DNA of 49,586 bases from Candidatus Altiarchaeales archaeon (GCA_014729705.1 WJJK01000045.1:1-49586); one strand, 5' to 3'. Numbered from the stretch's first letter, positions 7,676 through 49,586 are shown. Numbers and translations are program-made. Notes: generated from the sequence alone by a model not told the origin.

Positions 7676-7678
7676 TTA

Positions 7679-7948: not shown

Positions 7949-7957
7949 AAAAACTTC

Positions 7958-7986
7958 TTGACAAACTCTGATTTTTATCTTATGTT
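7958..7986 (+). promoter_or_regulatory. sigma70-like promoter candidate upstream of thyA
   Basis: TTGACA (7958-7963), a 17-nt spacer, then TATGTT (7981-7986), in a 144-nt gap. Confidence 0.5.
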
Positions 7987-8092
7987 CTCAGGGACGAAAT
8001 CGGACAGGGTTTATTATAGATTTAGAAAGTATGAGAGTATAGGCCCTATATAGAAGTATAGAAATGCAGCGAACCAATGGGAGAGCTTTAAA

Positions 8093-25671: not shown

Positions 25672-26142
25672 ATGGTATTCATTCCACGAGACCCTGTAGT
25701 CCAGAATCAGTTCCTTGTACATGATTCATCCAAGGGAACTACTGCGACCGCTGGTGCCGCTGTCTCTCTTTCTGCGAGTGAGAAGGTTGAAACCGTAAGT
25801 GGTTCTAACACCAAGCCTTACGGCTTCCTCATGCAGAATGTAAAGGCTGAGTCTTCCGCACATCCGACTGGTTTCCAACTCCCAGGCGATCTGGGTAGTT
25901 CCGATGCCTTCACGGGTGATCCGGTTGGTGTTGCTCACCTTGGTCTGTATGACACAACTCACTACGACACCACTCAGACTTATACTGCCGGAGATCAACT
26001 CCAGGTAGCTGCCGACGGAAAGGTAACCCCTTCCGGTTCCGGTAACGAGCTCCACAGCGACGTAGTTGCTGTTGCTCAGAATACCCTTGATTCTAACGCC
26101 GTATCGGCTGGTAGGAATCTAAGGATTAAGCTTCTTATATAA
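25672..26142 (+). CDS. head decoration/cement-like protein
   Basis: 156-aa beta-rich protein immediately upstream of the major capsid gene. Confidence 0.45.
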   Translation: MVFIPRDPVVQNQFLVHDSSKGTTATAGAAVSLSASEKVETVSGSNTKPYGFLMQNVKAESSAHPTGFQLPGDLGSSDAFTGDPVGVAHLGLYDTTHYDTTQTYTAGDQLQVAADGKVTPSGSGNELHSDVVAVAQNTLDSNAVSAGRNLRIKLLI

Positions 26143-27233: not shown

Positions 27234-27247
27234 TCGTTGTTCTATTT

Positions 27248-27281
27248 CCCAGAGGGAGGGGCAACGCCCCTCCCTCTTGGG
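27248..27281 (+). terminator. 15-bp GC-rich hairpin after the capsid gene (no U-tract)
   Basis: CCCAGAGGGAGGGGC aac GCCCCTCCCTC(T)TGGG. Confidence 0.55.
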
Positions 27282-27318
27282 AGCCAGGATTGTAGATTCT
27301 ATAACGGGGGAAAGATAG

Positions 27319-30300
27319 TTGCCCAAACCAAACGCACTTCCTACTTATTCAAAGGATAACGTACTTTATGCCGATGAGGGGCTTTCTGATCTAACCCCCG
27401 TCGGTGTTATTATTTCAAGTGGTACGTTGATTAGCGGTGCATTGACTTTCGGCTCTTTGGTCGGAGACATTGACACTGCTAATGGTGCGTTCTCTGAGAC
27501 CTTAACTGTTTCCGGTATACCGGTAGACATCTCTGCTGGTGGTGGTCCTGGAGCGGGAGTTTCTTCTCTGAATAGTCAGCAAGGCGCTATAACCTTGCAA
27601 GGTCAAGGCGGGACTACTATTACTACCGTCGGCCAAACTATAACTATTTCTGGAGCCACAGGTGGAGGAAGCAATGACCACTCTGCCTTGAATAACTTGG
27701 ACTTTGCAAGTTCAGGACACACTGGTTTTGCGTCCGAAGCGGCGCTAACAACCACCAGCGGACATCTACAAAATCAGATTGATGGTATAGATGATCATCC
27801 CCGCTACACAGACGCAGAAGCAGTTTCTGGCACAGAGGCTGCACGGGTCACCCTTTCAGGGCACCTACAGTCGGAAATAGATCTAAACGCTTCTGCTATT
27901 CTGCAACTTGACGGTGAGGTTGGGGCTCTCGATTCCGAACTGGTTACGGTTAGTGGTCATCTACAGGATCAGATAGATAATCTGCCAGCATCTTCGGGTA
28001 CAGCAGCTTCCGTTAATGCGCTTCAGGGTAGTGATGGTATAACCGTAATCTCCGGTTCTAATGTAGATACTATCCAGGGTTTCCGTCCTGAGTTTATTGC
28101 AGCTTCAGGTTCTCTACAAACACAAATAGATTCAATAGATACAGGAAGTTCTACAGGCGGCAAAGCTCTTGTAGGCTCTGATGGCATTACGGTAGTTTCT
28201 GGGTCTAACCAAGTAGATATTCAAGGTTTCCGTGGAGAATTTGTGAGTGCTTCGGGGACCTTACAGTCCCAGATAGATAGTAACAGTTCTGCGACTTCAA
28301 TCAACACCTCTAACATTGCAGATAATACCTCGCAGATACTTACTACTTCAGGGCATCTTCAAAACCAAATAGATTCTATCCAAATAGACGAACTTGAGCC
28401 TGCTATCGTGGGTCAAGACGGCATAACGGTAACCAGCGGCACTAACACGACTCTTACCGGGTTTAGGCCCGAATTTGTTGCAGCATCTGGGTCTCTTCAG
28501 TCCCAGATAGATTCCCTTGGGGCATCTGAGTTAGATACTGCTATAGTTGGTTCAGACGGTATAGCTGTAGTCTCGGGTTCTAACGAAGTAGAAATACAAG
28601 GTTTTCGAAATGAATTTGTAGCCTCTTCTGGTAGTTTACAAAACCAGATTGATAATCTGGATGACATTTATGCTACCGATGCCGAACTTGTATCTGTTTC
28701 TGGGCATCTCCAATCTCAAATAACAGGATCAAGTGATTTACAATCAGCTTATGATGCTGGGGACGGGATAATCACTACCAGCAGCGGCAAGCCCGCGGAG
28801 CTGGATGGCACCGGAGAGTTGGTTGCTGTCACTGGGACCTTCACTCAGGGCTTAACTATTGGTTCTACTTCCGTTGACATCTATGAGAACTCAATCACAA
28901 TAGATGGGGACAGAGTAGTAGTTGAACCTGATTTCGTCTCTGCTTCAGGGTATTTGGACAGTCGTATTACCTCCATGGATCCTAATGGTATTAGTTTCAA
29001 AGGGGCTATTGTTTCTAAAACTAACAACCAGAATCTCCCCAGCGGCGCTAATACCCCTGTTAACTTTCAGTCTGTACAGTATGATCATGGGGGTTGGTTT
29101 GACGCTTCTCAGCCAACCCGTTTCACGGTACCTTCGGGTGTTTCCCGGGTAGTAGTTTTTGCTAATGTTAGCTTGGAAAATAGTGGGGCTACGGGTAAGC
29201 AGCAGGTTAAGATTACCCGTAATGATCAATTTGGGCAGCCCGGATTTCCTATTGCAGGACACGCTCAGGAGACCAGCTCGTCAGATGATCTTTATAATGT
29301 TTGCACTGCCCCGATAGAAGTAACTCCCGGTGACTACTTTGAAGTTCAGGTATTTCATAATCAAGGGGCGGGGATCGATGTTTTTGGGACAGGAAATACC
29401 TGGTTTGGTATTGCCGCAGACAGGACTGGGTTTGAGATTCCTCTGGTTGGTGCTGGCAACGTAACCGTAGTTTCAGGTACTGACGTTATCACTATTTCTG
29501 GCAGCGGTTCTGGAGGAGGTGATCTAACCGATGCCATCGTGGGTGCCGGTGGAAACACCGTCATCTCTGGTTCCAACACAGTCACTGTATCTGGATTCCG
29601 CGATGAGTTTGTGTTGGCTTCTGGCTCTCTACAAGGCCAACTAGACTCTCACACGGGCGATGCAACGCTTCACTTCACTGAAGCCAGCATCGACCACACG
29701 AACATTCAGAACGTAGGTAGTAATACCCACGCCCAGATTGATTCGCACATCTCTGATAGCACCATTCACTTCACCGAAGGCTCTATCGACCACGACAACA
29801 TCCAGAACAACGGGTCGAACAGCCACGCGGAGATCGATACACACCTCGCGGCTCTGGCCACCAGCGGAACTACTAATGCTTCTAACCTTTCCTCACACAC
29901 CGGGGACTCCACCATCCACTTCACCGAAGGTTCCATCGACCATGGCTCTATCTCCGGGCTTGGGGATGACGACCATACCCAGTACACGCGCGCGGATGGA
30001 ACTCGGGCGTTTACTGGTGACCAGAGTTTCGGAAGTAACAACATTACCGATGTGGACACTCTTTATGCCACTCTTATCAGCGGCTCTGAAGATGCCACCC
30101 TGGGAGACGCGGGTTTCGAGGGAGACGGGGTAGTAATCGATGGTACTCTAAGACGCTCAGTTCTGAAGTCCTCGGACATAGGAAGCAACCGTCTGATTTT
30201 GATACACAAGCATAGGCACGATACAACCTTCCCTCCAGCAGAAGCATTCTCCCGCTCTAATACAGACGACAATTCTCACGCTGCGGTGACTAACGGGCAA

Positions 30301-34152: not shown

Positions 34153-35109
34153 ATGTCAGTCCTCAAGCCTATCATTGATAGCATTGTCAATGGTACTTTG
34201 ACGATTACTGCAACGTCACCCTCGGCCGTGGGGACGATGTTTGATAAGATTCAGATCTTTAGGGCTACTTCTGTAAATGGTCCCTTCAGTCTTATAGCCA
34301 CTATAGATTTTTCTTCTCCTGCAGCCTACTGTGATTTAACCAGTACTCCTAAACTTTATTACAAAGCTCAGTATTACAATAGTACCACTATGGTTTCCAG
34401 TACGTTTTCTGATGTGGCACAGGAAACTGGTGTATTCTCCGAGTATAGCGTACCGGAAAGCACGGCTACCTATCCGCCAGAGTTGGCTCTTTCTGACAAC
34501 GATAGGGAAATCGTTGAGTCTATAAGGATAACCGTAGGAGATAGCGGTCTGATAGAGCGGGATCTTTACGATTCTTCTGACCCGCAGTCGGCAGCTGCTT
34601 GCGCTGCTAATATAGACCCAGCTGGTTGTACTTGGGAGTTAACAGAATGGAAAGGTTGGCCACAAAAGGTAGTTCTTAATGGGGAAGAGAAGACCAACAT
34701 CAACGACCCTCAGGTACTTGGTTATCGCTACCTTGTTTTTAGTGGTTCTGGGCCGTGTATTACAGGCTCTTTAGACGTTTTCTATAACCACTTCCGCTTC
34801 TCCGATCGTGAGATTTTATTGGCTTACGATCGGGCCAGAAATCTTTTGATTACTTGTGGTTTGCCGGAATCTAAGGTTACGACAGAGATGCGTATAATGC
34901 AGGCTGCCATTCTTCTTCTTGAAGGAGAGATTAGGGAGCTGTCTCAAAATGCGTTCCGCATTGTGGATGGAGATACTACCTATGATAATAGTGCTACCAT
35001 TCGTTCCCGAACTACTGATTTGGAGGACCTCAAGAGAAAGATTGACAGACTGATTGAATGTGCTCGCTATGAAGCGGCGTACGACATCCAAGGTTGTAGG
35101 ATAGACTAA
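34153..35109 (+). CDS. hypothetical virion-module protein
   Basis: 318 aa, with an AAAGGAGGA SD. Confidence 0.5.
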   Translation: MSVLKPIIDSIVNGTLTITATSPSAVGTMFDKIQIFRATSVNGPFSLIATIDFSSPAAYCDLTSTPKLYYKAQYYNSTTMVSSTFSDVAQETGVFSEYSVPESTATYPPELALSDNDREIVESIRITVGDSGLIERDLYDSSDPQSAAACAANIDPAGCTWELTEWKGWPQKVVLNGEEKTNINDPQVLGYRYLVFSGSGPCITGSLDVFYNHFRFSDREILLAYDRARNLLITCGLPESKVTTEMRIMQAAILLLEGEIRELSQNAFRIVDGDTTYDNSATIRSRTTDLEDLKRKIDRLIECARYEAAYDIQGCRID

Positions 35110-36866
35110 TGCCCAAAAAACTGGTCACCAACAAAATGAAGAAGGACTATAAAAGGCTGATGTCTCAGCTTGTTAGAGATCTTTCCCAGGAGCTGGTAAT
35201 AGTTCAGGAAAGTCCTATGTTTGTAGATTGTCCTAACTGTTTTGAAGCAGGAACCCTTATAGAGACACCTTTTGGAATGAAGAAGATAGAAGACTTCCAA
35301 CCAGGGGATTATATTTTGGACGGCAATGCAGAGCCTCGACTTGTGGATAAAGTATTTCATAGACATACTGACGCATCTTTCACGTCCATTTTTACACACG
35401 GTAACAATGTGGGGTTGACAGCCACTTCCAATCACCACTTAATGGTACATGAAAACAGGGGCACAGCCTACCATCCCATTTTAGGTGGGTCGAAAGAAAA
35501 AGAGATAGGTAACATACAAAAAGGCGATATAGTTTCTAAAGCGATCAGAAAACTACCCCAAGAGCCTTTAGAAAAGCTATGGGTTGATTGGAAAACAAAT
35601 ACACATGGACCTAAAAAAGTTTTGCCAGAAATCTTGGAAGTTACCGATGATTTCTTATTTGCTGTGGGTTTGTATTTGTCCGAAGGCGTTACAAGCAAAA
35701 GCCGAATAGTAAGTTACTGTCTTAATGACTTGGAAGAAGAAATAGGTCATAAAGTTTGTGCGTATTGGAAATCGGTTGCAGAATGTAACTACACGATGTG
35801 TACTAGAGGAGGGGGTAGGAATAGGATTTTTGAGATATATAGTTCTTATTTGGCTGATCTATTAGATAGTTGGTGTGGACACGGCGCGCAAAATAAAAAA
35901 ATACCCACCTCCTTGTATTACAGGTTGAATGCCCGTCAAACTTTAGTGTTGTTGTTTGGTTTGTTTGTCGGCGCTGGTCATTATGAAAAACAATATGATA
36001 GTGTGGTATTTAGTACTATTTCTAAATCGTTGGCATATCAAGTTTACAATCTACTTCTATCTTGTGGATTCGGTGCCAGTATACTTTCTCAGCCTAGTAA
36101 GGTGGGATCGGACGGCATTTTTAGACAAGAATCGTTCGTAGTTAGATATTGGACAAATAAAGATAAGGCACAAAGAGGGACAATAAGAACTGAGGATAGA
36201 ATCTATCAGGTAGTAAAATCTGTAGCGCACAGTCATAAATCAGTACCTGTTTGGAATCTAGAGGTTCAAACCGAACACAGTTATATTGCAGATGGCTTTA
36301 GTGTACAGAACTGCATATGGGATTCTGTTAATAAAAAATCCTCTAATGTCTTTGATGGTTCTTTTACGTCCGCAACTACTATTTTTTCTGGTACCAGTGA
36401 GGAGCGGGTTATAAATCCTATATCTTTCACTGTTGGACGTTGTCCTGTTTGTATAGGTGAAGGTCAGATTTTTACCAACAAAGAAATCTGCATTCCTGCT
36501 ATGATAAATTTTTTCTCTGGAACCGGCATGCGCCGTGGTTTATTTATGAGCACTGCTGCAGGTAAGGAAGGGATGAACTTGGTGGTGGTTAAGACTCTCG
36601 CCTGCCACTATGAACTTTTACAGAACAATGAAACTTTTTTTATTCATAACAATGTTAAATGTGTGAAGTTCAAGCCTCCTTTCCTAAGAGGGTTGGGTGG
36701 AGAAGAGACTGTTTGTGAGACTATTCTTCAGACTGCCGACGAAGGACAAAGGACTTCTGGTAAGTTTGGTGGTGGAGACAAGTTAAGTCGAGATGATGAT
36801 CCAAGAAAGAGGATAAGAGGTCCTTCTGATATTCTGGATCAGAGAGGTAAACTGAGAGGTAGGTAA
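35109..36866 (+). CDS. virion-module zinc-knuckle protein precursor containing a 358-aa intein
   Basis: Layout is ...FVDCPN | CFEAGTLIE...GFSVQN | CIWDS.... The 227-aa extein carries CPNC and CPVC pairs. Confidence 0.75.
   Translation: MPKKLVTNKMKKDYKRLMSQLVRDLSQELVIVQESPMFVDCPNCFEAGTLIETPFGMKKIEDFQPGDYILDGNAEPRLVDKVFHRHTDASFTSIFTHGNNVGLTATSNHHLMVHENRGTAYHPILGGSKEKEIGNIQKGDIVSKAIRKLPQEPLEKLWVDWKTNTHGPKKVLPEILEVTDDFLFAVGLYLSEGVTSKSRIVSYCLNDLEEEIGHKVCAYWKSVAECNYTMCTRGGGRNRIFEIYSSYLADLLDSWCGHGAQNKKIPTSLYYRLNARQTLVLLFGLFVGAGHYEKQYDSVVFSTISKSLAYQVYNLLLSCGFGASILSQPSKVGSDGIFRQESFVVRYWTNKDKAQRGTIRTEDRIYQVVKSVAHSHKSVPVWNLEVQTEHSYIADGFSVQNCIWDSVNKKSSNVFDGSFTSATTIFSGTSEERVINPISFTVGRCPVCIGEGQIFTNKEICIPAMINFFSGTGMRRGLFMSTAAGKEGMNLVVVKTLACHYELLQNNETFFIHNNVKCVKFKPPFLRGLGGEETVCETILQTADEGQRTSGKFGGGDKLSRDDDPRKRIRGPSDILDQRGKLRGR
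35238..36311 (+). mobile_element. intein with a (possibly degenerate) LAGLIDADG domain
   Basis: Starts with Cys1 (CFEAGTLI), has a TSNH block B, motifs FLFAVGLYLSEG and LLFGLFVGAGH, ends VWNLEVQTEHSYIADGFSVQN and is followed by a +1 Cys. Confidence 0.8.
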
Positions 36867-38364: not shown

Positions 38365-38368
38365 CAAG

Positions 38369-38384
38369 GGGTGCTGCCGCACCC
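38369..38384 (+). terminator. short GC hairpin after gene 37522..38364
   Basis: GGGTGC tgcc GCACCC, with no U-tract. Confidence 0.3.
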
Positions 38385-38489
38385 AGGCACGGTACAGGAC
38401 TTTCCTCCAAAGTTGCCTCACTTTGGTAGGCACCGCACATTTCCCCCAATGTTGCGAAAATCAAAACTCGTAAAGGAGGAAGACCTGAA

Positions 38490-40367
38490 ATGGCAAGACG
38501 TAACCGAATTATCTACCCAAGCAATTCGGTTTGGGCAAACGGTAATGTGCTGTATCGGGTACAGACCTTCGGTTCAACCACCGCGTTTAACACCGAAGAC
38601 GTCTTCGAACTTGGTCAGCTAAAGGTTATTGACGTTGTGGATGACTCCCCAACGGTTACCGTAACCATTGAAACTGGCGAGTTCGGCTCTCTATCCAACC
38701 TTTACCATCTGTCTAACCTTGAGTTTGATAGCGTTATTTCCAATGACGCTGTTGCTGCTTCTGGTCACTTGACTGTGGTAAGTGGACTTGGAGATGATGC
38801 AGTTAACATTGCACACTACCACGGTGTAGCCCTGACTGACTTCGGTCTTTCTGGATGCGAGACTGGTTCGGCTGTTGAGATTTGGGCGCCCATTCAGAAT
38901 GAGTGCTCTCTCGGTACCGACAATGACGAGATTGATCAGACTATGTATCTGCCACGAGTGTTCGTCAACTCTATTGAGTGGACCTACTCCGCAGGTGCTA
39001 ACGCGGCTGAAAACTTCGGTGCAGAAACCGATGCTAAGTTCTGGTTTACAAATGATGGTAGGTTTATCTCTAATGAGGAGTTCGTATACACTTCTTCCCC
39101 ACCAGAAACTGACACCAACACAGGTGTAACTGGTGGTACCGGATTTAAGGTTGACGCTTCCGAGACCTCGGTTTACCTTGGTCTGGATCAGAATGCTGCT
39201 ACTGCCGAGCTTGTTTCTACTCGCTCTACCGGTCAGCTTGCGTTCTTACGCTTTGACGTGTTCGGTACTCCTTCAGTAAGGTACTACAACCGATCTACCA
39301 AGACTTCTTTTGAGGTCCCGGTAGAGGCTGGTACCGCTGCTAAGGCAGGTACTTACGTATACGACAGTACTGACAACCAGCTCTATGAGCCAACTGACTT
39401 GACCACCAACAACGAGCTTCTTGGTGAGGCTAAGGCAGATGGCGACATTCTGTTCGTTGTCTACGCTGCTAATCACTACGCCCGCCGATGGGAAGATCTT
39501 GATTCCACCACTCAGACTGACCGTGGTGGTGCTAAGAGCACTTCCAAGATGGCTACGCGTCGTGACGCAGAGTACTTTGCTCCGATTGAGATTGATCCAG
39601 GTGATAAGCCCGAAGACGTCGGCGCTGTTCGTCAGGGTCAGATCGAGATCTACCTCGTTGATAAGGACGTTCTACCGCCCGACTTCAATCTCGACAATGA
39701 GCTTGCTCTTAGAGTAACTTCCGTAACTATTACGGCAGATCTTACTCGTGAGCCGCTCTTTGAGCTCTCGCACCTTCGACCTTACGACCGATCGTTGACT
39801 TTCCCGATTCCATTCACAGTAACTGTTGAGACAACCGCATCCGATCTTACCGAGTATGCAACCTTCGCTTCCAAGAAGCAGGGAGTTGCAATCGATTTGA
39901 CCACGGATGAGGTTTCCATCTACGACTTCATGTCCGCTAATGAAAGACTCGACCTTGTCGTGCTCATTTATCAGCAGACAGATGAGGAAGCAGGTGGTGT
40001 AGGTTCTCAGCGAAGAGTGGTAACTCGAGAGATGGTTGGTGATGAATACTATCAGAGAGGACAGAGGTTCATCTATTACGATGGCACCACTTCCGATCCT
40101 GATACTGGTATCAACTACGGTACTAGCATCCCGGTTTCTCCAACAAAGGATAACACTCACCGCGAGCGACCTCTTAAGACCGTTATTGCGAAGGATCTGC
40201 GAATCACTGACGAAGCGTACAACCTCACCCTTGGTGAGAACGCTACTCAGACATACGGTTTCCGAGGTACCAACCGAGTCTTCGCCGTTCTTGGTGAAGT
40301 CGATACTGGTGACCTTGTTGCCGATCCTGGATTCCAGGTCAATCCGGACGCTCCACGAATCTTCTAA
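38490..40367 (+). CDS. major tail structural protein (sheath-like by size and position; family not verified)
   Basis: 625 aa. It has its own 125-nt upstream gap, a strong AAGGAGGA SD, and is followed by two tandem hairpins. Confidence 0.45.
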   Translation: MARRNRIIYPSNSVWANGNVLYRVQTFGSTTAFNTEDVFELGQLKVIDVVDDSPTVTVTIETGEFGSLSNLYHLSNLEFDSVISNDAVAASGHLTVVSGLGDDAVNIAHYHGVALTDFGLSGCETGSAVEIWAPIQNECSLGTDNDEIDQTMYLPRVFVNSIEWTYSAGANAAENFGAETDAKFWFTNDGRFISNEEFVYTSSPPETDTNTGVTGGTGFKVDASETSVYLGLDQNAATAELVSTRSTGQLAFLRFDVFGTPSVRYYNRSTKTSFEVPVEAGTAAKAGTYVYDSTDNQLYEPTDLTTNNELLGEAKADGDILFVVYAANHYARRWEDLDSTTQTDRGGAKSTSKMATRRDAEYFAPIEIDPGDKPEDVGAVRQGQIEIYLVDKDVLPPDFNLDNELALRVTSVTITADLTREPLFELSHLRPYDRSLTFPIPFTVTVETTASDLTEYATFASKKQGVAIDLTTDEVSIYDFMSANERLDLVVLIYQQTDEEAGGVGSQRRVVTREMVGDEYYQRGQRFIYYDGTTSDPDTGINYGTSIPVSPTKDNTHRERPLKTVIAKDLRITDEAYNLTLGENATQTYGFRGTNRVFAVLGEVDTGDLVADPGFQVNPDAPRIF

Positions 40368-40380
40368 AGGTCGATTTTCT

Positions 40381-40432
40381 GCTGTCCCGGGTCCCGCCCG
40401 GGGCAGCAACAAGTTCCTCCGTCTTTCGGAGG
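40381..40432 (+). terminator. two tandem GC-rich hairpins
   Basis: GCTGTCCCGGG tcccg CCCGGGGCAGC (11 bp including one G-U pair), then CCTCCG tcttt CGGAGG. Confidence 0.5.
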
Positions 40433-40469
40433 GGTAAGGAATGAGTTTAAGGGAAAGGAGATTATTCTC

Positions 40470-40748
40470 ATGGTTTCCAGGGAAGAAAAGTCCCTGGGTA
40501 AATCCCAGGAAAAGCTCAAGAGAGATGTGGAGAGAAGCGTCCTCAAGAGCGCTGATGAGATCCTGAACATTGCTGAAGTCGCAATAGCTGATTCCCAGCG
40601 GTACAGGGCTTTTAGATCTAAGGTTCTTCGTTCAGTCAATGACGCTGTTCGGGAAGTTAAGAAGAACCTTGATCTTCATTACAAGGTGGTGTACGTGCCT
40701 ACTAACGAAGACGTTATAGAGGTACAGCAGCCAAGAGTTAGAAGTTAG
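40470..40748 (+). CDS. hypothetical small helical protein
   Basis: 92 aa, with an AAAGGAG SD. Confidence 0.45.
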   Translation: MVSREEKSLGKSQEKLKRDVERSVLKSADEILNIAEVAIADSQRYRAFRSKVLRSVNDAVREVKKNLDLHYKVVYVPTNEDVIEVQQPRVRS

Positions 40749-40769
40749 GCAAAGGATAAGGAGACATAA

Positions 40770-41639
40770 ATGGCAACCGCAAAGGACGTCAAGGACGTGC
40801 TGGATACACGTCGCGAGTTTACTCTTGAAAACCCTGACGGAGAAACTGAAAGTTATTTTATTGCCCAGCCGAGCGCTGCGGACATAAGAAAAGCAGATTG
40901 GCAATACTCCAAGGTTTATAACCAGGCTATTGTTGATGGTTTTTTAACTCAATCCCAGATGTTGGAAGTTCTTAAGGACAAGGGTATTCTTTCCGAGGAG
41001 TACACCGAGCAGCTTGAGAGCGTGAGAATCAATCTGGCAGCAGAACTTTTTAAGCTTGAAAATCTCGGAAATGAAACCCCCGATGATGACCGTGAAGCTG
41101 TTGCTATGGAAGTGGCGCGCTTAAGAGATCAGCTCTTCCGGCTAAATCAGCAAGTTAACGGTCCTATGGGGAATACCTGTGAGAACTTAGCCGAAGATGC
41201 CCGAACCGAGTTTCTAACCAGTAGGGTAGTTCAGAAGCAAGATGGATCTCGTCTGTGGGAAACCTTTGATGATTATCAGAACGAAGAAAACTCCGGTTTA
41301 TCTGTTAAGGCTCGTTTTGAAGTTATGCTTTGGATGCAGGGACTTGAAAGCAACTTCATGGAAAATACTCCAGAGCAATCTACTCTCAGGGAAGTAGCCC
41401 AAAAGAGATTAGACAACGCCCTTGAAGAGGCCAGAAAATCTGCTTTGGAACAGTCTGAGAAAGAAGAAAAGGAAAAGCGGTCCGGAGAAGATTCCGAGAA
41501 AACCAAGGCTGAGAAGAAGGCTCCACGAAAGAAGAAGACTCCTAAAAAGAAGGCTTCCTCCTCCAAGAAAGAGGAGAGTTCTCCTGCTCCCAAGAGACGA
41601 AGAGGTCGTCCTCGAAAGGATGAGAAGAAGGAAGAATAA
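40770..41639 (+). CDS. chaperone-slot protein A with a Lys-rich tail and AT-hook-like RRGRPRK
   Basis: 289 aa and a paralogue of the next gene (both share W[EK]TFDD[YF]xNE). Tail reads KKAPRKKKTPKKK...KRRRGRPRKDEKK. Confidence 0.5.
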   Translation: MATAKDVKDVLDTRREFTLENPDGETESYFIAQPSAADIRKADWQYSKVYNQAIVDGFLTQSQMLEVLKDKGILSEEYTEQLESVRINLAAELFKLENLGNETPDDDREAVAMEVARLRDQLFRLNQQVNGPMGNTCENLAEDARTEFLTSRVVQKQDGSRLWETFDDYQNEENSGLSVKARFEVMLWMQGLESNFMENTPEQSTLREVAQKRLDNALEEARKSALEQSEKEEKEKRSGEDSEKTKAEKKAPRKKKTPKKKASSSKKEESSPAPKRRRGRPRKDEKKEE

Positions 41640-42781
41640 TGTCTGAAGAGGGGACTTCTGGGGAGAAGATAAGTCTTTCTTTTCAAGAAGTGGAATCTCT
41701 ACTGGATTCTGTTCTTAATAACCAAAGACTCCAGCAAATAGACTTACCTGATGGCTCTCCGAGATTTGTTGTTTTTTGTTTTCCGACTGGCCCAGAACTT
41801 TTGGCTGCTCGCTATACGAGGGACAAGACTTTGGCGGAGGCGGCAGCCGAGGGTTTGCCCACCATAGAAGAAATGGATAGGCAGATACAAGAGAGGGGTT
41901 TACTTGAAGACGTAGACCAGAGTATAAAGGATTTGGAAGAACGTCTTGAAGGACAAAGGGCCATTCTTAACAAGACACAAATACCGGGGCGTAGATCGGC
42001 CGTAGAAGAAGTTATTAGCAAGATACAGAGTGATCTTTATGGCCTTAGATCTAAGAAAGAGTCCTATTACTATTTAACCCAGGAAAGAAAAGCCGATGAA
42101 GTTTCTTACAGATACTTAGCCTGGGCATCTACTTATTCTATTGAGGGTGGTAAGTATTGGAAGACCTTTGACGATTTTGAGAATGAGACAGACATTTATT
42201 TTCAAACTGAAGTTCTTGGGCATTTTGCTAAATTTAACTCAGGTCTTCCTGCCAAAAAGGTCCGTTACCTAGCCCGACATAATCTTTGGCGCATACGTTT
42301 CGTAGCAGCCACCAAAACGGGGGCGGGACCGTCCCTGTTTTGTCGTAGATTTAATGATTTGACTCCAGACCAACTTGGCCTCCTATACTGGAGTAACTAT
42401 TATCAATCCATTTACGAAATGCTTCCGGATGATCAACCTGATCAAGAGATCATCGAGGACGACGAGAAGCTTGATAAGTACATGGAGGATTATTTCAAGC
42501 AAAAGGAGGCGGAGAGGAAAGAAGGAAAGGCTGAAAAGAGGAGCGATGTCTCTGGACATCCTAAGGGTTATAAGCCCAAGCTTAACGCTTGGGAGCGAGG
42601 AGAGGAGCTAATCATTACCCCTTCCCACCCAGAATACCAAAGTCTGGCATACACCGAGAAAAGAATAAACGCCCCTGAGGGCACTTCTGAGGTAGAAGTT
42701 ATTTCTCCTAATAGTAGGAGGGCCAGGAACAGAAGAGCCCAGGCGCGAAGCCAGTCCAGTATGCGTGGAAGGAAACGATAA
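41639..42781 (+). CDS. chaperone-slot protein B (paralogue of A) with an Arg-rich tail
   Basis: 380 aa, TAATG-coupled. Shares the PDG...G(L/F)(P/L)T and WKTFDDFENE blocks. Tail reads RRARNRRAQARSQSSMRGRKR. Confidence 0.5.
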   Translation: MSEEGTSGEKISLSFQEVESLLDSVLNNQRLQQIDLPDGSPRFVVFCFPTGPELLAARYTRDKTLAEAAAEGLPTIEEMDRQIQERGLLEDVDQSIKDLEERLEGQRAILNKTQIPGRRSAVEEVISKIQSDLYGLRSKKESYYYLTQERKADEVSYRYLAWASTYSIEGGKYWKTFDDFENETDIYFQTEVLGHFAKFNSGLPAKKVRYLARHNLWRIRFVAATKTGAGPSLFCRRFNDLTPDQLGLLYWSNYYQSIYEMLPDDQPDQEIIEDDEKLDKYMEDYFKQKEAERKEGKAEKRSDVSGHPKGYKPKLNAWERGEELIITPSHPEYQSLAYTEKRINAPEGTSEVEVISPNSRRARNRRAQARSQSSMRGRKR

Positions 42782-42804
42782 TCCTACGGCGGAGGAAAAG
42801 GTAG

Positions 42805-45800
42805 TTGGTAGAAGAGAGCTTCAAGCTTAATCTAAATATAGAACTTGATGAAAGTGGCCTTGCGGGACTTCAAAAGCAGATAGAAAGAAGTGTAAATAAA
42901 GCTTTCTCTGATGCTTTTAGAAAGGTCAAGTTGCCTACGCCCGGCGCTACAGGAGGTGGCGCTGGTCCTACTCCGGCAACTGCACGAAGTGCCCGTGAGG
43001 CTATTTCTGTATCTGGGCAAGATCTTGGAAAGAGTGTCCAGCAAGCTTTGAGAGGCGAGCTACGCGGATTCGAAGCTGCTGCTAAACGTATGGAACAGGC
43101 GGTAGACAGATTGGCGCGCGTCATGGGAGGAGGACGCGGAGGCGGAGCTGCTTCTGGAGGCCCTTCCAGAAGACAACAACAGGTTGAGGAAGTTTTTAGG
43201 GCCCGCGTTGGTCGTATATCCGAGATGCGAGGGAGGCAAAGAACTGCCCGAGAAGCTGGAACTCCTGCCGGAGAACGAGAAGCCGAGCGCCTTGAGGTGG
43301 AGATAGCCAGAGAAAAGAAAAAGGCTTTTAGAACAGCACAGAGACGCCAGCGCCTCCAGGAACAGTCTGCTAAGGCGGCCGAAAGAACTGCCAAGTCTGA
43401 GGAAGACCTAGCCCGCTCCACAGAGAAGCTGGCGGCTGCACGTCGGAGAGAGGCTGCTGCTACCGAAAGCAGAGGGCGTCAAGGTGCCGGTCCTTCCGGC
43501 CCTGCCCCTACACGTGGAAGAGAACAGGTAGCTTCCCGGCAAGTAGGTGCTTCCAATCAACAGACAGGTGCTAATATAGATGTCACCCGACGTTCGGGTT
43601 CTCAAAGGACCGCCGGATCCACTGGAGAAATTGTAACCGATGCCCCTCGTATTCGCGATAACAGAGTAGGTACTGTACAGGATAGGCCTCAGTTTAGAAA
43701 GGAAGCACAAGAAAGAGAGAGGGCCAGGGCCGGAGCCGGTGCGGAATATATAAAGAGTGCTCAGGCTACCTCCGAACGGGTTGCTGCAAGCATAGGAAAG
43801 CTTGAAGCGGCTATTAGAACTATGCCTCAGTTTAGGGATGTTGATCTTTCCAAGGCTCTTGGGCTGCCAGGCAAGGAGTCCCTTGGTGTTGGTAGAGGAG
43901 CAGCTGCCACCGTTAAGCTTCCTTCTGGAGAAGAGAGGGTTATACGCCAGGCAGTTAATATTCTATCAGATGAGATGGGCAAAGTTTCTGTTGAGGCTGG
44001 GGACGTAATCTCCAAGCGTATTGACAAATTGCTTTCCAGTGAAGCTATGAGTAAGATAGGTAAGACAGCCCGTTTCCGACCTGAGCGCGCCGAAAATATG
44101 CTCAGGGCGGAAATAGGCAAGATATTTGAAGCTCCTAAGCTTGAATCTACTAAGGTAATGGGCGGTTTTGCTACAGCCGGACAGTCCCATATGACTTTCA
44201 AGCCTACAGAAGAACAGCGCAAAAGAATAGCATCCAAGGCCCCTGGGGCAGAGCAGATAGCAGAGGCTATGGTAGTTCTGCAGGAAATGTCCAGGGAATC
44301 CGAATCCTTCAAAAAGGCAGGGCTTGAGGTTGTACATGTTTTGGGTATGGCGGAGCAGGACGCTGCTGCAATGGCAGATTCTATCGAAGCTTTTGCTAAG
44401 GGAGCTTCTGATAGTATAGAGGGAATTGTTCAGACAAGAAATCTGGCGGCTATGGGTGTTGGTGGTGCCGGAACTATGAGACAAGCACGTTCCTTCCTTG
44501 TTACCCAAACACAAGAGATGGTAGGGGGAGAGGAACCCAAGATTAAGGGAATAGGAGAAGAAGCAGCATACGCTGGTGATATTTTTGGAAAGAGAGCGGT
44601 AAAGCATCTCAAAACTGCTGTTGTTTCTGCGGACCTTATGCCCGAGCTTAAGGAAGATCAGTTCCTACTGGACAAAAAAGCAGCAGAACAGATGGGTATG
44701 ATAGAGAAAAAGAGTAAGCTTGTTAAAGATGTTGGTGAGGACATAGTTCCTGGTATGAAGTTGCAACATAAGCAGGTACTGGGGGCTGATGTAAAGGGTA
44801 GAGCTGTAGAGTTTGACCTTAAAGGGGCTGAGGCCGAGGTTAAGAGAGTAGAAAAAGTCATAAAGAATGGTGTTGAGGCTTGGAAGATTCATTATGAAGA
44901 GCTCAACCAGATGGTTACGGGTGGTAAGATGACCACCCGCGCCGGCGGTAAGGGTATAGTACGAGTTGAGGAGGATATTGCCGGTAAATACGGTCTTCCT
45001 AAGGGAACTCAAGTGGCTATGTCGGCTGAAGGTATGGCCAAGAGAGGCGATTTAAGGAGCATGATTGAGATGCATGCTTCTAACATTTCTGAGGCTACTA
45101 CTAAGTCAGGACAAGAAGTGGCTGACATGATAGTAGATAGAATGAAGCACGGTTCTGATTATATGGGAGAAACCATTGATCAGGCCATAAAGAACGTCGC
45201 GTCTGAGTTAGGTATTAAGGGCTATACTGGTGCAGAGGTTATGCGGGAAGGTCCTCTGGCTAAGGGCAAGGGAGGCGAAGCGGCAGTTATGACCGGTGAG
45301 CTGGCTTGGATGCGCCTGGCAAAGGAGGGACAGAGAGGTCCGGCCCCTGTGGACCCTCGTTTCTTGGATAAGCCCGCCCAACAGGCCATGGAGCAGCGCG
45401 CCGAAACTGTTGCCCAGTCCAAAGCCATGCAGAGTGAGATGTCAAAGGTTATAGAAAGTAACTACGAGTACGTAGCTACCTTGCAGTCTATTGCTGGCGC
45501 TACGGACGAGGTCACAGAAGGTTTGAAGGAAGTCAAGCCGGAGAGATTCAAAGGACTCACTGGCGGAATGATGGATCCTTCTACACTTAAGGGAACCCTC
45601 TTAGATCCTGATCTTGCCGAGCCCCTAAAGGTTATGTTGCCCAAGAGGGGTGGCGGTGAGGAGGCTATGCGCTTGCCCTCTATGGGAAGGGGTCTGGGTA
45701 AGCGTGATTATTTTGAGACTGAACTAGGTCAGGTGGGTGCCAGTGACATAACTAAACTTTATGATAAAATAATCCAGCAAGCCAAACAAATAAGAGTGGC

Positions 45801-48800
45801 TACTGGACAAGTAGACATTACCGAGGATGCTGAGGCTTATGGAGAGGCAGCTCAAATAACTTCCAGGGCCATGAAGGACCAGATACAAACGATCTATAAG
45901 TTGGGTTCTAAAACTGAAGAAGGTAAGGCGGCGATGAAAGAGTTCATCGATTCCTTTATGCCTTTAATAAAGCAGCTTGAAGGACCTGCAGGTATTGAGT
46001 ATCAGAAGGTAAAGAAGACAGGAGAAAGGGAAACAGTTGCTTATCAAGGTACCGCAGAAGAGTACGTACAGAGCCGTAAAACTCTTGAACAAAAGATGTT
46101 CGGTATTCAGGACTTGCTGTCTGAAAGATCGGCCCGCCGGGCCAAAGTAAGTCCTCAGAGCGCTTGGGGTAGGCAGGGTTATGTCGCAACCGAAAACGTA
46201 CCTCGCGCAGGTGCTATGTTTGATCCTAAAAATGCAGAAGTACTTAGAAAGTCTATGGATCTTTTGGGAGTATCCTTAGAGGAGGATGCGGAGCATGTTG
46301 ACAAGCTTCATGACAGGTTAGAGAGGCTTAAGTCAATACTTGTAGAGACTCTGTCCATGGCAGGTGTAGGAACCGCGGGCGGACGCCCTGCTTCCGAGTC
46401 TTTGCGCCCCTACGCTCAGGCCATGGGGGGCGGTATAGCTGAGGCACCTATGGGGGTCGCTACAGAGTTTAGAACAGATATATCTGCTTCTCTTGCGAAG
46501 GCTAAAGAAAGATTAGAGCAGCTGGCTGATTCTGGTAAGAACGTAGATCAGGCCCTTGCGGCGGTGGAGAGGATTTCTGCCCTCCAGACTGATGTGGAAG
46601 GTTTGCCTCGCGACGCTGTTATGTTGAGTGAGACAGATTATGAAAATCTCAAGCAGTCTATTATGAAGCGGCAGCGAATAGGCGAAGCTGAAGCCACCAA
46701 GAGAATGGAAAGAGGTGTTTCTCTGCGCTACCCAGTGACTGGTGGTCAGAGTATGCAGGCAGTTAAGATTCTAAAAGATACAATGGGTAAGCTACCGGAA
46801 GGTAAGATTGGCGTTGCAGGACCTCCTGCCGGAGAACCTGAGGACATTGAAAAGGTCACAGGTCAACTTAGTGAGTTTAGAGCTTCCCTTGCCAAGGTTA
46901 TAGAGGATAATAAGGGTTTCGGTGCTGAAGCGGATCAAGCACGCTCTGAAATAGCCGAACTGGATCCAGTTATAGAGGGACTTCGACAGTCTTTCCTTAG
47001 CGCTACTCAGAATCTTGATTTCGACGGAGACAAGATTGCTGTATTTGGAGCGCTGACAGAGGAGGCATCGAAGTCTCTTCGTACGTTCACTGAAGTTGCT
47101 ATGAGAGGAGGAATGTCCTTTGAAAACATAATGAGTACTATTTTGACTGCTTCCAAGGGCAAGCCTGGCGGAGGAATGGGAGGTGTCGAAGAATACGCTC
47201 AGTTGTTCGGCCAGGTTGCTAAGGGCAGGACTGGTAAGTACCGTCAAGCAGTTATGGCTCCTGACACTACAGAGACTACGCGTTTTGAGTCCACAGCCCA
47301 CACAGCCGGAAAGTTGTCCGTTAGTTTGCTCACTGATGCCTTCAATAAGCTTCAGATGTCTATTCTAGGGGGAGCTGAGCAGACCGGAGACGCGATGTCT
47401 ACTGCGGTAGAGCGTATAATGTTGTTTATTAACAAATCCCTGGCACAAAAGCACGGCGGTGGGGGAGCCGGCGGGGCTGACCCTATGGAATTTATAGAGT
47501 CCTTCCGTAGAGGACCTGAAGGTCTTAAGGAAATCTTTTCCGGTATGGATGAGATGGGAGATGATATCTACGGAGAGCTCGGTAAGTTCAACAAAGAATA
47601 TCGTGAGCGTATGTACAACATGCTCATCGCTCAACCAAGAGATACTGTTCAAGAGTTAGCTAAGCAAGCTGGGGTTTTGGAGAGCGAAGCGGACCTAACT
47701 CCGGAAACTTTTATACCTGTTATAAAGGACATGGTTAATGAGCTGGACCTAAAGGGACAGTTTAAGCGTATGTGGGAAATGCTTGAAGACAACATGAAGC
47801 AATCTCTTATGAAGGAGGGTATGTCTGCGGAAGAAGTATCTGCCAAGATGAGGGATATGCTTACAAAGCCTACCAAACAGACTGGTAAACCGGCAGGACT
47901 GGATCTAAATAGACTGATGAAGAACATGTTCCCGGAGTACAGGGCTACCCGAAAGGTAGGGGTAAGGGAGATGGAGGGAGAATCTCCTATGGGTAAAGCC
48001 CAACAAGTACTTAAGATGTTGGGGCTTCATGTGGCCGAGAGAATAGAAGAGACAGAGGAATACTTTGATGAAGACGTAATACAAGGGGCAGCAGTACAAC
48101 TTATATCTAAGATTCATTCTTTCTTAGAGTCTGTTTCTGATCAGTTTGAGATATCTACCACTGCTGAGTTTGCCCAGAGACTCGGAAGAACTCCCGAACA
48201 AGCTGCTGGAGTAAGAGGTCAGTACATTAGAGGAAAGGGCGATGAGCCTGGTAAGATAATGCTTTCCGAGGAGAAAATTTTCAAGCCCCTTATAGAGGCC
48301 ATTGCTACCTTGGATAGGGTCGCTAAGGGAGAGATACCTCCAACAGTTGAAGCTTTCCAAAGCCTTGGTGAGGCTTTGTCTAGGTTTGCTTCTACCATGT
48401 CCCACGAAGGTATCCATAAGGCCGCAGACCAGTTCCCTGAAGTTATACAAAATCTGGTCCGACGTATAACTTCCTCAAGTGGTGATCTAAGCCAGCACTC
48501 GGGAGCTATTTATGAAGCCTTAAGTAAGCTTTCCAATGTGGCTAAACTTAGAGGTAAGTTTGAGCAGGTTTCCAAGGCCCAGAAGGGAGGTGCTACTGAG
48601 TTTGCAGGGATGCCTATAAAGGAGGCCAAGCAGGAGATAGGTCGTCGTTTGGCCAGAGTTTCTACAGAGGAGTTAGTCGCTCACCTGGCCGATCGCCAGA
48701 AGTGGCAAAAGGTATTTGGTCACCTTCCAGAAACTGTACAGCAAGCAGCCAGGGATGCATTTGAAGAACTCTCCCAGTCTGCACCTGACATTGTAAAGCC

Positions 48801-49586
48801 TGTTCAGAATTGGTCAAATGAAATTCTATCTTCTCTTGTTGAAATAATGACTTCTACTTTCCAAGGACAAGGTGTGGGGGCTGCCAGAGAGGCTGCCCAG
48901 CAGAGAAGAGATGCCTTGGAGTCGGGGGAGCCTTACCCCGGTAGAGAAAGATTCCATCAAATGCGCGAAGTTTTGGGTAAGGGAGAAGAAACCCTGGCAT
49001 ATGGTAGAAGAACCCATGGACTTGCTCCTTTTCAGAAAGCAGAAGGAAGAGTTGGTATAGGTGGTCGCCTCGAAATAGGAGGGGAGCAGGTAGTAGGTCA
49101 GATAGGTGCCCAGGTACGCAATCTTTTGGAGAGCGCTCTTAGAGGAGGAGCATTTGATGATCCTGGTGCTGCAGCTGAGTTGGAGAAAGATTTTAAAGCC
49201 GCTGCCCGTCAGTACTATGAGGCTTTGAAGGGCCTTGGTAGGGATCAGTTTAGCGGAAACGCTTGGAAGGAATACAACAAGGTTCTTCTCGAGTTCCAGG
49301 CAGCTGAGGCGCAGTCTCTTATAAACAAAGCGCGCCAGATGGAAGAGCAGATTTCAGAAATGAGAAAGGCAGGTCAGACTGACATGCCTGAGTTCCGCGA
49401 TCTGCTGGATAGATTTAATGAAACGGTTCAAGAACTTTTCCGTTCCTACGAGAAGAACATTAAGTTAGGAGGCAAAGGAAGAGGTACTGCCTCCGGACTG
49501 GCCGTTACCCCGGACCAGCTAATCTCTGAACCGGCATTGGAGATGGGTGTTAAGCCTACGGGCGCACAATATCAGCAAGTAATGCA
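42805..49586 (+). CDS. giant virion-module protein (>2,260 aa, 3'-open) containing RpoB-like and RpoC-like double-psi beta-barrel motifs: candidate single-chain RNA polymerase
   Basis: Hand translation of frame 1 is open from TTG 42805 to the window end, with GGAGG at 42791-42795 and an in-frame TAG at 42802-42804. GGKMTTRAGGKGIV lies at 44920-44961, RYPVTGGQSMQAV at 46726-46764 and NLDFDGDKIAVF at 47011-47046. The ORF is absent from the supplied track. Confidence 0.8.
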   Translation, partial: MVEESFKLNLNIELDESGLAGLQKQIERSVNKAFSDAFRKVKLPTPGATGGGAGPTPATARSAREAISVSGQDLGKSVQQALRGELRGFEAAAKRMEQAVDRLARVMGGGRGGGAASGGPSRRQQQVEEVFRARVGRISEMRGRQRTAREAGTPAGEREAERLEVEIAREKKKAFRTAQRRQRLQEQSAKAAERTAKSEEDLARSTEKLAAARRREAAATESRGRQGAGPSGPAPTRGREQVASRQVGASNQQTGANIDVTRRSGSQRTAGSTGEIVTDAPRIRDNRVGTVQDRPQFRKEAQERERARAGAGAEYIKSAQATSERVAASIGKLEAAIRTMPQFRDVDLSKALGLPGKESLGVGRGAAATVKLPSGEERVIRQAVNILSDEMGKVSVEAGDVISKRIDKLLSSEAMSKIGKTARFRPERAENMLRAEIGKIFEAPKLESTKVMGGFATAGQSHMTFKPTEEQRKRIASKAPGAEQIAEAMVVLQEMSRESESFKKAGLEVVHVLGMAEQDAAAMADSIEAFAKGASDSIEGIVQTRNLAAMGVGGAGTMRQARSFLVTQTQEMVGGEEPKIKGIGEEAAYAGDIFGKRAVKHLKTAVVSADLMPELKEDQFLLDKKAAEQMGMIEKKSKLVKDVGEDIVPGMKLQHKQVLGADVKGRAVEFDLKGAEAEVKRVEKVIKNGVEAWKIHYEELNQMVTGGKMTTRAGGKGIVRVEEDIAGKYGLPKGTQVAMSAEGMAKRGDLRSMIEMHASNISEATTKSGQEVADMIVDRMKHGSDYMGETIDQAIKNVASELGIKGYTGAEVMREGPLAKGKGGEAAVMTGELAWMRLAKEGQRGPAPVDPRFLDKPAQQAMEQRAETVAQSKAMQSEMSKVIESNYEYVATLQSIAGATDEVTEGLKEVKPERFKGLTGGMMDPSTLKGTLLDPDLAEPLKVMLPKRGGGEEAMRLPSMGRGLGKRDYFETELGQVGASDITKLYDKIIQQAKQIRVATGQVDITEDAEAYGEAAQITSRAMKDQIQTIYKLGSKTEEGKAAMKEFIDSFMPLIKQLEGPAGIEYQKVKKTGERETVAYQGTAEEYVQSRKTLEQKMFGIQDLLSERSARRAKVSPQSAWGRQGYVATENVPRAGAMFDPKNAEVLRKSMDLLGVSLEEDAEHVDKLHDRLERLKSILVETLSMAGVGTAGGRPASESLRPYAQAMGGGIAEAPMGVATEFRTDISASLAKAKERLEQLADSGKNVDQALAAVERISALQTDVEGLPRDAVMLSETDYENLKQSIMKRQRIGEAEATKRMERGVSLRYPVTGGQSMQAVKILKDTMGKLPEGKIGVAGPPAGEPEDIEKVTGQLSEFRASLAKVIEDNKGFGAEADQARSEIAELDPVIEGLRQSFLSATQNLDFDGDKIAVFGALTEEASKSLRTFTEVAMRGGMSFENIMSTILTASKGKPGGGMGGVEEYAQLFGQVAKGRTGKYRQAVMAPDTTETTRFESTAHTAGKLSVSLLTDAFNKLQMSILGGAEQTGDAMSTAVERIMLFINKSLAQKHGGGGAGGADPMEFIESFRRGPEGLKEIFSGMDEMGDDIYGELGKFNKEYRERMYNMLIAQPRDTVQELAKQAGVLESEADLTPETFIPVIKDMVNELDLKGQFKRMWEMLEDNMKQSLMKEGMSAEEVSAKMRDMLTKPTKQTGKPAGLDLNRLMKNMFPEYRATRKVGVREMEGESPMGKAQQVLKMLGLHVAERIEETEEYFDEDVIQGAAVQLISKIHSFLESVSDQFEISTTAEFAQRLGRTPEQAAGVRGQYIRGKGDEPGKIMLSEEKIFKPLIEAIATLDRVAKGEIPPTVEAFQSLGEALSRFASTMSHEGIHKAADQFPEVIQNLVRRITSSSGDLSQHSGAIYEALSKLSNVAKLRGKFEQVSKAQKGGATEFAGMPIKEAKQEIGRRLARVSTEELVAHLADRQKWQKVFGHLPETVQQAARDAFEELSQSAPDIVKPVQNWSNEILSSLVEIMTSTFQGQGVGAAREAAQQRRDALESGEPYPGRERFHQMREVLGKGEETLAYGRRTHGLAPFQKAEGRVGIGGRLEIGGEQVVGQIGAQVRNLLESALRGGAFDDPGAAAELEKDFKAAARQYYEALKGLGRDQFSGNAWKEYNKVLLEFQAAEAQSLINKARQMEEQISEMRKAGQTDMPEFRDLLDRFNETVQELFRSYEKNIKLGGKGRGTASGLAVTPDQLISEPALEMGVKPTGAQYQQVM

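Follow-up and report, generated by a model that had tools for sequence, protein, structure and literature searches.

A giant tail-module protein of uncultured phages that probably unites a two-barrel RNA polymerase with a tape measure

Until now, the fusion of an RNA polymerase (RNAP) to a tail tape-measure protein has rested on one small genus of Thermus phages. The gp96 protein of phage P23-45 is a virion-borne and active RNAP of the two-barrel type that is fused to the tape measure (Chaban et al., Nat Commun 2024, PMC10770324), and P74-26, G20c and TSP4 have been named as having gp96-type relatives. The structure of gp96 is flat and lacks a clamp, the enzyme transcribes the pre-early genes, and its authors proposed that the polymerase acts, during DNA entry, at a pore which the tape measure forms (PMC10770324). 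The two-barrel core itself is common to RNAPs, QDE-1-type RNA-dependent RNA polymerases (RdRp), a primase-like enzyme and PolD-like DNA polymerases (PMC10770324). Here, we analyze a stretch of 49,586 nucleotides labelled Candidatus Altiarchaeales archaeon (GCA_014729705.1, WJJK01000045.1:1-49586; hereafter the window), whose last part (38490-49586) contains tail genes followed by a giant open reading frame (ORF). We consider it likely that the product of this ORF, hereafter called the giant, is a tail tape-measure protein that carries a two-barrel RNAP in its first ~1,800 residues.

Phage-encoded RNAPs that likewise act independently of the host enzyme include gp66 of phi14:2 (a crAss-like phage), YonO of Bacillus SPbeta and N4 vRNAP. 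The proteins gp66 and N4 vRNAP are large, packaged and ejected, and gp66 and YonO are two-barrel enzymes; gp66, however, is a head or cargo protein and not a tape measure, N4 vRNAP has a T7-like fold, and YonO is not known to be a virion protein. No match, to the crAss-like gp66, YonO or N4 loci or otherwise, was obtained by tblastn and megablast against 50,697 INPHARED phage records, nor in PHROGs, and by sequence the locus is therefore of none of these types; a preliminary description of this DNA had remarked that its head module and genomic placement did not look like those of N4 or the crAss-like phages. The same description had named N4 and the crAss-like phages as the only precedents and had taken the arrangement to be novel; this no longer holds, because P23-45 gp96 had already been published (PMC10770324). 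Thus, the concept of a fusion between a tape measure and an RNAP is already known from P23-45, and the family of the giant is a sequence-unrelated and architecturally distinct case.

The giant ORF is located on the plus strand and runs from 42805 to 49586, the last base of the window, where the contig ends with the frame still open. These 2,260 codons without a stop, a length far beyond chance, would encode the N-terminal part of a fusion protein predicted to have ~4,600 amino acids (aa). The start is a TTG codon at 42805, with GGAGGAAAAGG upstream, and the N-terminus reads VEESFKLNLNIELD; this start is supported by the conservation of MVEExFK at the N-terminus of relatives, in which the sequence is kept as MVEExFKIGI. 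The product is identical to the NCBI partial protein GF334_01650, which is annotated as a partial hypothetical protein.

The sequence motifs and the modelled fold together suggest that the first ~1,800 residues of the giant form a single-chain two-barrel RNAP in which a beta-like barrel precedes a beta'-like barrel, and we regard the fusion reading as a whole as likely. The invariance of motifs was judged in a 13-sequence alignment of the family, whose members are 27-63% identical and in which ~5% of the columns are invariant. The block of the putative beta-like double-psi beta-barrel (DPBB-B; aa 699-754, 44899-45066, plus strand) reads TGGKMTTRAGGKGIV...GTQV...GMAKRG. Its beta-type signature TGxK-x5-GxKG is found at aa 705-717 (TGGKMTTRAGGKG), where T705, G706, K708, G714 and K716 are invariant in all 13 sequences, as is R747; a beta-type barrel is marked by two conserved lysines in a K-x-x-G-R-H-G-x-K-G-like motif and an Arg motif downstream, and both are present. 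The putative beta'-like barrel (DPBB-A; aa 1299-1424, 46699-47076, plus strand) is composed of R-Y-P-V-T-G-G-x-S, a helical hairpin insert and N-L-D-F-D-G-D. Invariant residues of the beta' type are R1308, P1310, T1312, G1313 and S1316 of RYPVTGGQS, and N1403, D1405, D1407, G1408 and D1409 of NLDFDGD (aa 1403-1409). The predicted metal-binding triad DFDGD within the latter motif (aa 1405-1409, 47017-47031, plus strand) was read by direct translation, and DxDGD occurs in every family member that spans the region; the (N)xDxDGD loop preceded by an R-x-P motif, which marks a beta'-type barrel, is therefore also present. Between the barrels lies a long connector (aa 755-1298, 45067-46698, plus strand) of mixed alpha/beta structure, modelled mostly at pLDDT 70-88, which is possibly clamp-like. 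The matching signatures of the E. coli enzyme are GDKMAGRHGNKGV...GVPSRMN in the beta barrel and NRAPTLH...NADFDGD in the beta' barrel. A second RNAP in the window, looked for by the pattern DxDxD, was rejected, as the other matches, in the intein of the large terminase subunit (TerL) and in a 477-aa protein, were only chance ones.

Profile comparisons and structure prediction point in the same direction. When the family profile was compared by hhalign with the E. coli subunits, the only match to RpoC fell on NADFDGD (beta' 454-497, E 0.0021), and the only match to RpoB paired the beta-like block with beta 1058-1128 (GRHGNKGV/GVPSRMN; E 0.037). The presumed RNAP core (aa 600-1750, 44602-48054, plus strand) was modelled with AlphaFold2 (AF2) from the 13-sequence alignment, giving a pLDDT of 68.5 and a pTM of 0.37. 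A Foldseek search of the PDB with this model returned 311 matches at E<=1e-3, the best with E 6.8e-7, probability 1.0 and ~300-400 aligned columns; the top 50 of these 311 matches were all second-largest RNAP subunits, from bacteria, archaea, Pol I-V, plastids and vaccinia. In BFVD, a library of viral structures, the matches were to Rpb2-like subunits from poxviruses, giant viruses, nudiviruses and phiKZ-like phages (best E 2.4e-7). As for the beta' barrel, strands are predicted at aa 1304-1339 and 1410-1415, and the 50 listed Foldseek matches are all of the beta type; because the catalytic loops are modelled at pLDDT <50, this barrel rests on the motifs and on a modest hhalign score.

A further connection is provided by stand-alone viral ORFs of ~1,100 aa in IMG/VR (L025:2143-5436 and L026:2158-5598, on contigs of 79 and 141 kb), which carry THGNKGVI and NLDFDGD. 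The L025 ORF aligns with the beta-like block of the family (hhalign 96% probability, E 2.9e-9) and matches beta subunits in the PDB (E 0.004). With PF00562 RNA_pol_Rpb2_6, both ORFs exceed the threshold set by Pfam, the best E being 1.3e-8, and PF00623 is matched with E 7.9e-5. Since it is these ORFs that bridge the two, the giant is linked to the Pfam RNAP models transitively only. Motifs, profile comparison, fold and transitive link are thus four independent lines that agree on an RNAP-like giant, as had been proposed before on the basis of the sequence.

The tape-measure part is missing from the window because the contig ends at aa 2,260, and the evidence for it comes from relatives. A word-indexed homologue search had returned only the window's own protein and P0002, and then, with a profile, only P0019; the family was revealed by an exhaustive profile search of representatives, which found 42 relatives, ~21 of them full-length (3,769-5,285 aa). 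All ~21 full-length members have a domain homologous to residues 2341-2600 of P0002 (phmmer E 1e-67 to 1e-127), which Pfam calls as the tape-measure domain PF10145 PhageMin_Tail in P0002, P0003 and P0013 (E 1e-23 to 2e-25). In the relatives a hydrophobic (transmembrane) segment follows the PF10145-type domain, and in the full-length members that cover the RNAP region DxDGD lies ~1,100 aa before the tape-measure domain. The closest relative, on the 65-kb Logan contig SRR17165180_57595 (L027), is 79% identical over all 2,260 aa, and its full product of 4,585 aa contains PF10145. The giant is 53% identical to P0003 (4,653 aa), in which PF10145 is located at 2577-2772; as the window aligns to residues 1-2301 of P0003, the domain is expected ~250-300 residues (~0.8 kb) past the contig end. 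The predicted helical region that follows the RNAP core (aa 1751-2260, 48055-49586, plus strand; aligned with P0003 up to aa 2301) would lead toward it. No separate tape-measure gene lies downstream of the giant in L001 or L003, the two relatives that were read downstream. Most likely, the C-terminal ~2,000-2,800 residues, which the contig end cuts off here, constitute a tape measure.

The idea that the RNAP is fused to a tape measure had already been put forward, and the tape-measure domain of the full-length relatives, including the 79%-identical orthologue, argues in its favor. The location assigned to the tape measure, in contrast, was wrong. The first ~500 aa had been described as rich in R, E, A and G and as tape-measure-like. 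The enrichment is real (61% R/E/A/G in aa 101-200 and 47-48% in aa 201-400, measured in 100-aa windows), but it is confined to a low-complexity segment of about aa 100-350 (43105-43854, plus strand), in which GGGRGGGAASGG represents aa 108-119. This segment is poorly conserved, the family consensus being mostly 'x' and the segment being shorter in P0002. It was ruled out as the tape-measure part, since by homology both the tape-measure domain and the transmembrane segment are C-terminal and lie past the end of the window.

Relatives of the giant were found in assemblies from JGI, ENA, Logan and NCBI, as well as at 14 loci of IMG/VR; clustered at 50% identity, the family, whose sequences stem from several metagenome sources, gives no fewer than 20 clusters. 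Contigs of 295,848 and 297,725 bp carry some of these relatives, so at least part of the group is jumbo-sized; the IMG/VR genomes UViG_3300023278_002893 and UViG_3300022719_000329, of ~296-298 kb, are complete. Three IMG/VR contigs of 144-256 kb (L022, L023 and L024) contain more distant giant ORFs (>2,150 aa) whose frames are still open at either end of the retrieved locus. They carry QNLDFDGD and suggest that giant RNAP-bearing proteins form a superfamily extending beyond the 21 full-length members. Another distant DFDGD match, P0041, was rejected, being a fragment on a 3-kb contig with no match in the PDB. Our literature searches found no description of this giant family beyond the P23-45 system.

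In its architecture the giant resembles gp96 in several respects. Both are encoded by one giant ORF (gp96 has 5,002 aa, compared with a predicted ~4,600 here). Its N-terminal part is a single-chain two-barrel RNAP that contains DFDGD, as predicted here, and its C-terminal part is a tape measure that includes a membrane segment, seen here in the relatives. In both cases the giant gene follows tail-tube and chaperone-slot genes, and both groups appear, at the level of fold, to use a duplicated tube protein like those of T5 and P74-26. However, membership of the gp96 family, for which homology was tested in three ways, was rejected. Comparison of the giant family with gp96 gave nothing by phmmer and only out-of-register alignments by hhalign (E 0.11-0.12), and the structural proteins encoded in the window have no similarity to those of P23-45.

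The differences extend to the layout of the protein. The RNAP module starts later in the giant, with DFDGD at residue 1405 and not at 779 as in gp96, and the spacing between the K motif and DFDGD is ~690 aa here and ~230 aa in gp96. The short disordered connector of gp96 is thus replaced by a large one, and the RNAP of the giant is therefore probably not clampless. The tape-measure part of the present family contains PF10145, whereas the metallopeptidase domain of gp96 is lacking: in P0002, P0003 and P0013 no metallopeptidase, other protease domain or protease site was found, PF10145 being the only domain. Furthermore, the family profile aligns better with E. coli beta and beta' than with gp96, and, compared with the 84-kb genome of P23-45, relatives of the giant are found on contigs of up to ~300 kb.

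The giant shares with the RNAP cores of cells and giant viruses the lysine and aspartate signatures, the predicted fold of the beta-like module and the order of beta before beta'. It differs from them in that both barrels appear to be in one chain, fused to a virion tail protein, in that it has no Pfam-level similarity, and in that no partners of the alpha or omega type are evident. The closest recognisable RNAP relatives of its module are the L025 and L026 proteins, stand-alone beta-beta' fusion RNAPs with which it shares NLDFDGD. In contrast to the giant, these are unfused and more canonical (THGNKGVI), are recognised by PF00562 and PF00623, and have a shorter spacing between the motifs (~455 aa). 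Based on this comparison, we tentatively suggest, without holding it to be the likelier outcome, that the giants represent a second, independently evolved lineage of tape-measure-RNAPs, derived from a cellular-type beta-beta' fusion RNAP related to those of L025 and L026 and not from gp96/gp64, with a large clamp-like connector and carried by long-tailed phages whose genomes reach ~300 kb. If true, tethering an RNAP to the DNA conduit would be a convergent and general way to launch infection, and perhaps to pull in very large genomes. The polymerase, being bulky and not flat, would then need to be kept either in an unfolded state or at a site other than the tube lumen.

By analogy with P23-45 gp96, and from general tape-measure biology, the following course of events may be envisaged. 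The giant would be held by the two paralogous chaperone-slot proteins while its C-terminal part becomes surrounded by polymerising tube protein, so that the fusion protein would be built into the tail lumen during assembly. At infection the giant would be expelled and its hydrophobic segment would insert in the membrane, where the transmembrane and tape-measure part might form or line a conduit through the envelope. As the last part to leave the tail, the N-terminal polymerase would come to lie beside the leading end of the DNA and would transcribe the first-entering phage genes independently of the host RNAP; transcription might also help to draw in a very large genome. It is by inference that we regard the giant as packaged in the virion, ejected and catalytically active, as specific for template and promoter, and as coupled to the entry of the DNA.

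Several observations weigh against a fusion of this kind. There is no detectable homology to gp96, and the analogy with it is therefore functional and not phylogenetic. The giant itself has no match to any RNAP in Pfam, PHROGs or the PDB sequences (phmmer and a 2-sequence profile), and the curated models PF00562 and PF00623 do not match it either, with only 1 of the 13 family members reaching PF00623, at E 0.16. The model is only moderate (pLDDT 68.5, pTM 0.37), the DFDGD and RYPVTGG loops having a pLDDT <50, and none of the long helices that follow the beta' barrel in it was assigned as a bridge helix or trigger loop. In addition, Pfam finds no PF10145 in the 2,260 aa of the giant that are present, the fusion being deduced from orthologues, and the family is known from sequences of uncultured phages alone. 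Finally, it is not obvious how a folded polymerase of ~1,500 aa, in three or more copies, would fit into the lumen of a tail, and the length of the connector speaks against a flat shape without a clamp, such as has been invoked for gp96.

The giant might instead be a polyprotein from which the RNAP module is cleaved off before or during tail assembly, to work only as a non-virion RNAP in the producing cell, the C-terminal part alone being packaged as the tape measure. Processing is frequent among tape-measure proteins, gpH of lambda being an example, an RNAP core as bulky as this one, with its ~540-aa connector, would not easily fit in a tail tube, and the related stand-alone RNAPs of ~1,100 aa indicate that the module can function unfused. 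On the other hand, the fusion persists throughout the ~21 full-length members despite an identity of 27-63%, which argues for selection on the physical linkage; the relatives inspected for Pfam domains (P0002, P0003 and P0013) revealed neither a protease site nor a protease domain; and in the only case that has been tested, P23-45, the RNAP part was found in virions (PMC10770324). We therefore regard cleavage as improbable, even if it is the strongest of the rivals. Slightly less probable still is that the two-barrel module has been exapted as a non-catalytic part of the tape measure, either structural or serving as a plug that binds the DNA end. The polymerase activity of the giant is a prediction only, the catalytic loops are poorly modelled and the Pfam RNAP models miss the protein, all of which would suit such a module; the three Asp, the preceding Asn, both Lys and RxPxTG are, however, invariant in an alignment in which only ~5% of all columns are, and this is the pattern of a working active site.

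The wide occurrence of the two-barrel core (PMC10770324) also raises the question of whether the tape measure is joined to a different enzyme, namely a QDE-1-type RdRp, a primase-like enzyme or a DNA polymerase resembling PolD. We think this quite unlikely: the top 50 structural matches are all beta subunits of DNA-dependent RNAPs, with no QDE-1 or PolD among them, the stand-alone relatives match Rpb2_6 and Rpb1_2, and N-x-D-F-D-G-D is the signature of beta'. Cleavage, an inactive domain and another enzyme together account, in our estimation, for about a quarter of the probability. A merger of two genes by mis-assembly or chance read-through might be suspected in a metagenomic contig that was binned to an archaeal metagenome-assembled genome (MAG), but we give it almost no credence, as the same uninterrupted architecture is present on independent contigs from JGI, Logan, ENA and IMG/VR. 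A tape measure that carries a two-barrel RNAP is thus the reading that we prefer.

The existence of a sequence-unrelated family with the same architecture as gp96 would make this fusion a recurrent infection strategy and not a curiosity. The family would also add a new, more cellular-like branch to the single-chain two-barrel RNAPs, and it sharpens the mechanistic puzzle of how a large polymerase travels through the tail or is stored in it. For annotation there are two warnings: giant proteins listed as 'hypothetical' or 'minor tail' can hide polymerases, and phage contigs of this kind are mis-binned into MAGs, here into an Altiarchaeales bin.

The genes that precede the giant in the window place it in the slot of the tape measure, as the preliminary description had noted: a 625-aa product, a 92-aa product and two paralogues are followed by the giant. 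The coordinates confirm this gene order, and the paralogy is confirmed as well (E 4e-9); every gene of the window is on the plus strand. The same order of tube gene, small gene, two paralogues and giant is kept in L001, L004 and L027, which, together with the lack of a separate downstream tape-measure gene already mentioned, answers the question raised earlier of whether the linkage to the tail module is conserved. The region is most likely the tail-assembly block of an uncultured long-tailed phage.

The 625-aa protein (38490-40367, plus strand) is probably the tail tube (major tail) protein, of the type with a duplicated tube domain. It has no Pfam domain and no family match; its AlphaFold model, built from 26 sequences, reached pLDDT 73 and pTM 0.74, and the best Foldseek matches in the PDB were the tail tubes of T5 (9iny_A, E 8e-5) and P74-26 (8ed0_A, E 6e-4), with further tube and Hcp proteins ranking behind them. 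The tube proteins of T5 (pb6) and P74-26 are duplicated-domain proteins of long non-contractile tails, and since the model is nearest to these, the earlier designation of the gene as the major tail gene is supported at the level of fold. The protein has at least 436 homologues with 40-95% identity (>90 clusters at 70-95%), some on contigs of up to ~320 kb, and is much more conserved than its neighbors; the adjoining giant is 27-63% identical within its family and 79% identical in its closest relative.

The tube gene, which the preliminary description had called highly expressed, is preceded by a separate 125-nt leader with a strong ribosome-binding site and is followed by a GC-rich predicted stem-loop (40380-40408, plus strand) and a second small hairpin (40415-40432). 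The RNA fold of 40368-40440 has an energy of -38.5 kcal/mol (z -4.3), and none of 200 shuffled sequences was equally stable. A T-run, as found in classical intrinsic terminators, is missing from the stem-loop, and our scan listed no terminator-like site on the plus strand in this region. A comparable GC-rich hairpin (-36 kcal/mol, z -5.0) is located directly 3' of the capsid gene, at 27245-27282. Probably, these hairpins are transcript-stabilising or attenuating structures that flank the two most abundant virion genes.

The conserved small gene that follows (40470-40748, plus strand; 92 aa) has a product with no family match, and its slot is occupied by genes for 99, 96 and 122 aa in L001, L004 and L027, respectively. 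The next two genes, whose slots are kept in the same three relatives, encode proteins of 289 aa (40770-41639, plus strand) and 380 aa (41639-42781, plus strand), whose first ~170 residues mark them as paralogues (E 4e-9, with 24% identity in an alignment of 169 aa). A chaperone role is suggested by their position only. Two genes that share an N-terminal domain would mimic the G/GT pair of lambda without a frameshift, and a two-gene chaperone has been described for phage 0305phi8-36 (PMC2147016), with which the pair may be compared.

A head module of the tailed-phage type lies upstream of the tail block. It comprises, all on the plus strand, TerL (13553-16624; 1,023 aa) with an intein that contains a LAGLIDADG homing endonuclease near the N-terminal ATPase part, the portal (16625-18511), a cement protein (25672-26142) and the 355-aa major head protein (26166-27233). 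The portal gene is followed by a gene for an 878-aa protein (18528-21164), with repeated matches to DUF6582 and weak chitin-binding CBM_14-like matches, which possibly is associated with the head or serves in ejection. A ferritin/Dps-like gene (21592-22110; PF00210, E 9e-20; PHROG 3636) is situated between the portal region and a putative scaffold. The capsid and neck genes are separated by a 1,841-aa ORF (27319-32844) that has a pectate-lyase/rhamnogalacturonase-like domain (PF12708, E 1e-8), an odd location for a fibre or depolymerase; the same slot contains small genes and an HNH endonuclease in L004, and an ORF of at least 850 aa in L027.

In the neck/tail block, the gene for 585 aa at 35109-36866 encodes both a Hint/intein splicing domain and a domain of the LAGLIDADG type, while for its positional counterparts in L004 and L027, of 226-227 aa, no such domains are listed; the window therefore contains a second intein, in a virion gene other than TerL. 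In L027, a gene for a 281-aa LAGLIDADG_2 homing endonuclease (7494-8339) is located directly upstream of the tube gene, where the window has only the 125-nt spacer (38365-38489). Mobile endonucleases thus seem to move through the structural module.

The archaeal (Altiarchaeales) label of the window is probably a binning artefact. The MAG labels on the window and on related contigs (L006-L010) disagree with one another (Gammaproteobacteria, Saccharibacteria, Woesearchaeota and Altiarchaeales), and these mutually inconsistent labels indicate that the sequences are probably mis-binned phage contigs. Scans for sigma-70 promoters and terminators showed no enrichment over shuffled sequences and gave no clue to the host. 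The left, non-structural part of the window encodes a thymidylate synthase, ThyA (8093-8899; E 3e-125), an HNH endonuclease (2499-3155) and a GNAT acetyltransferase (5478-6362).

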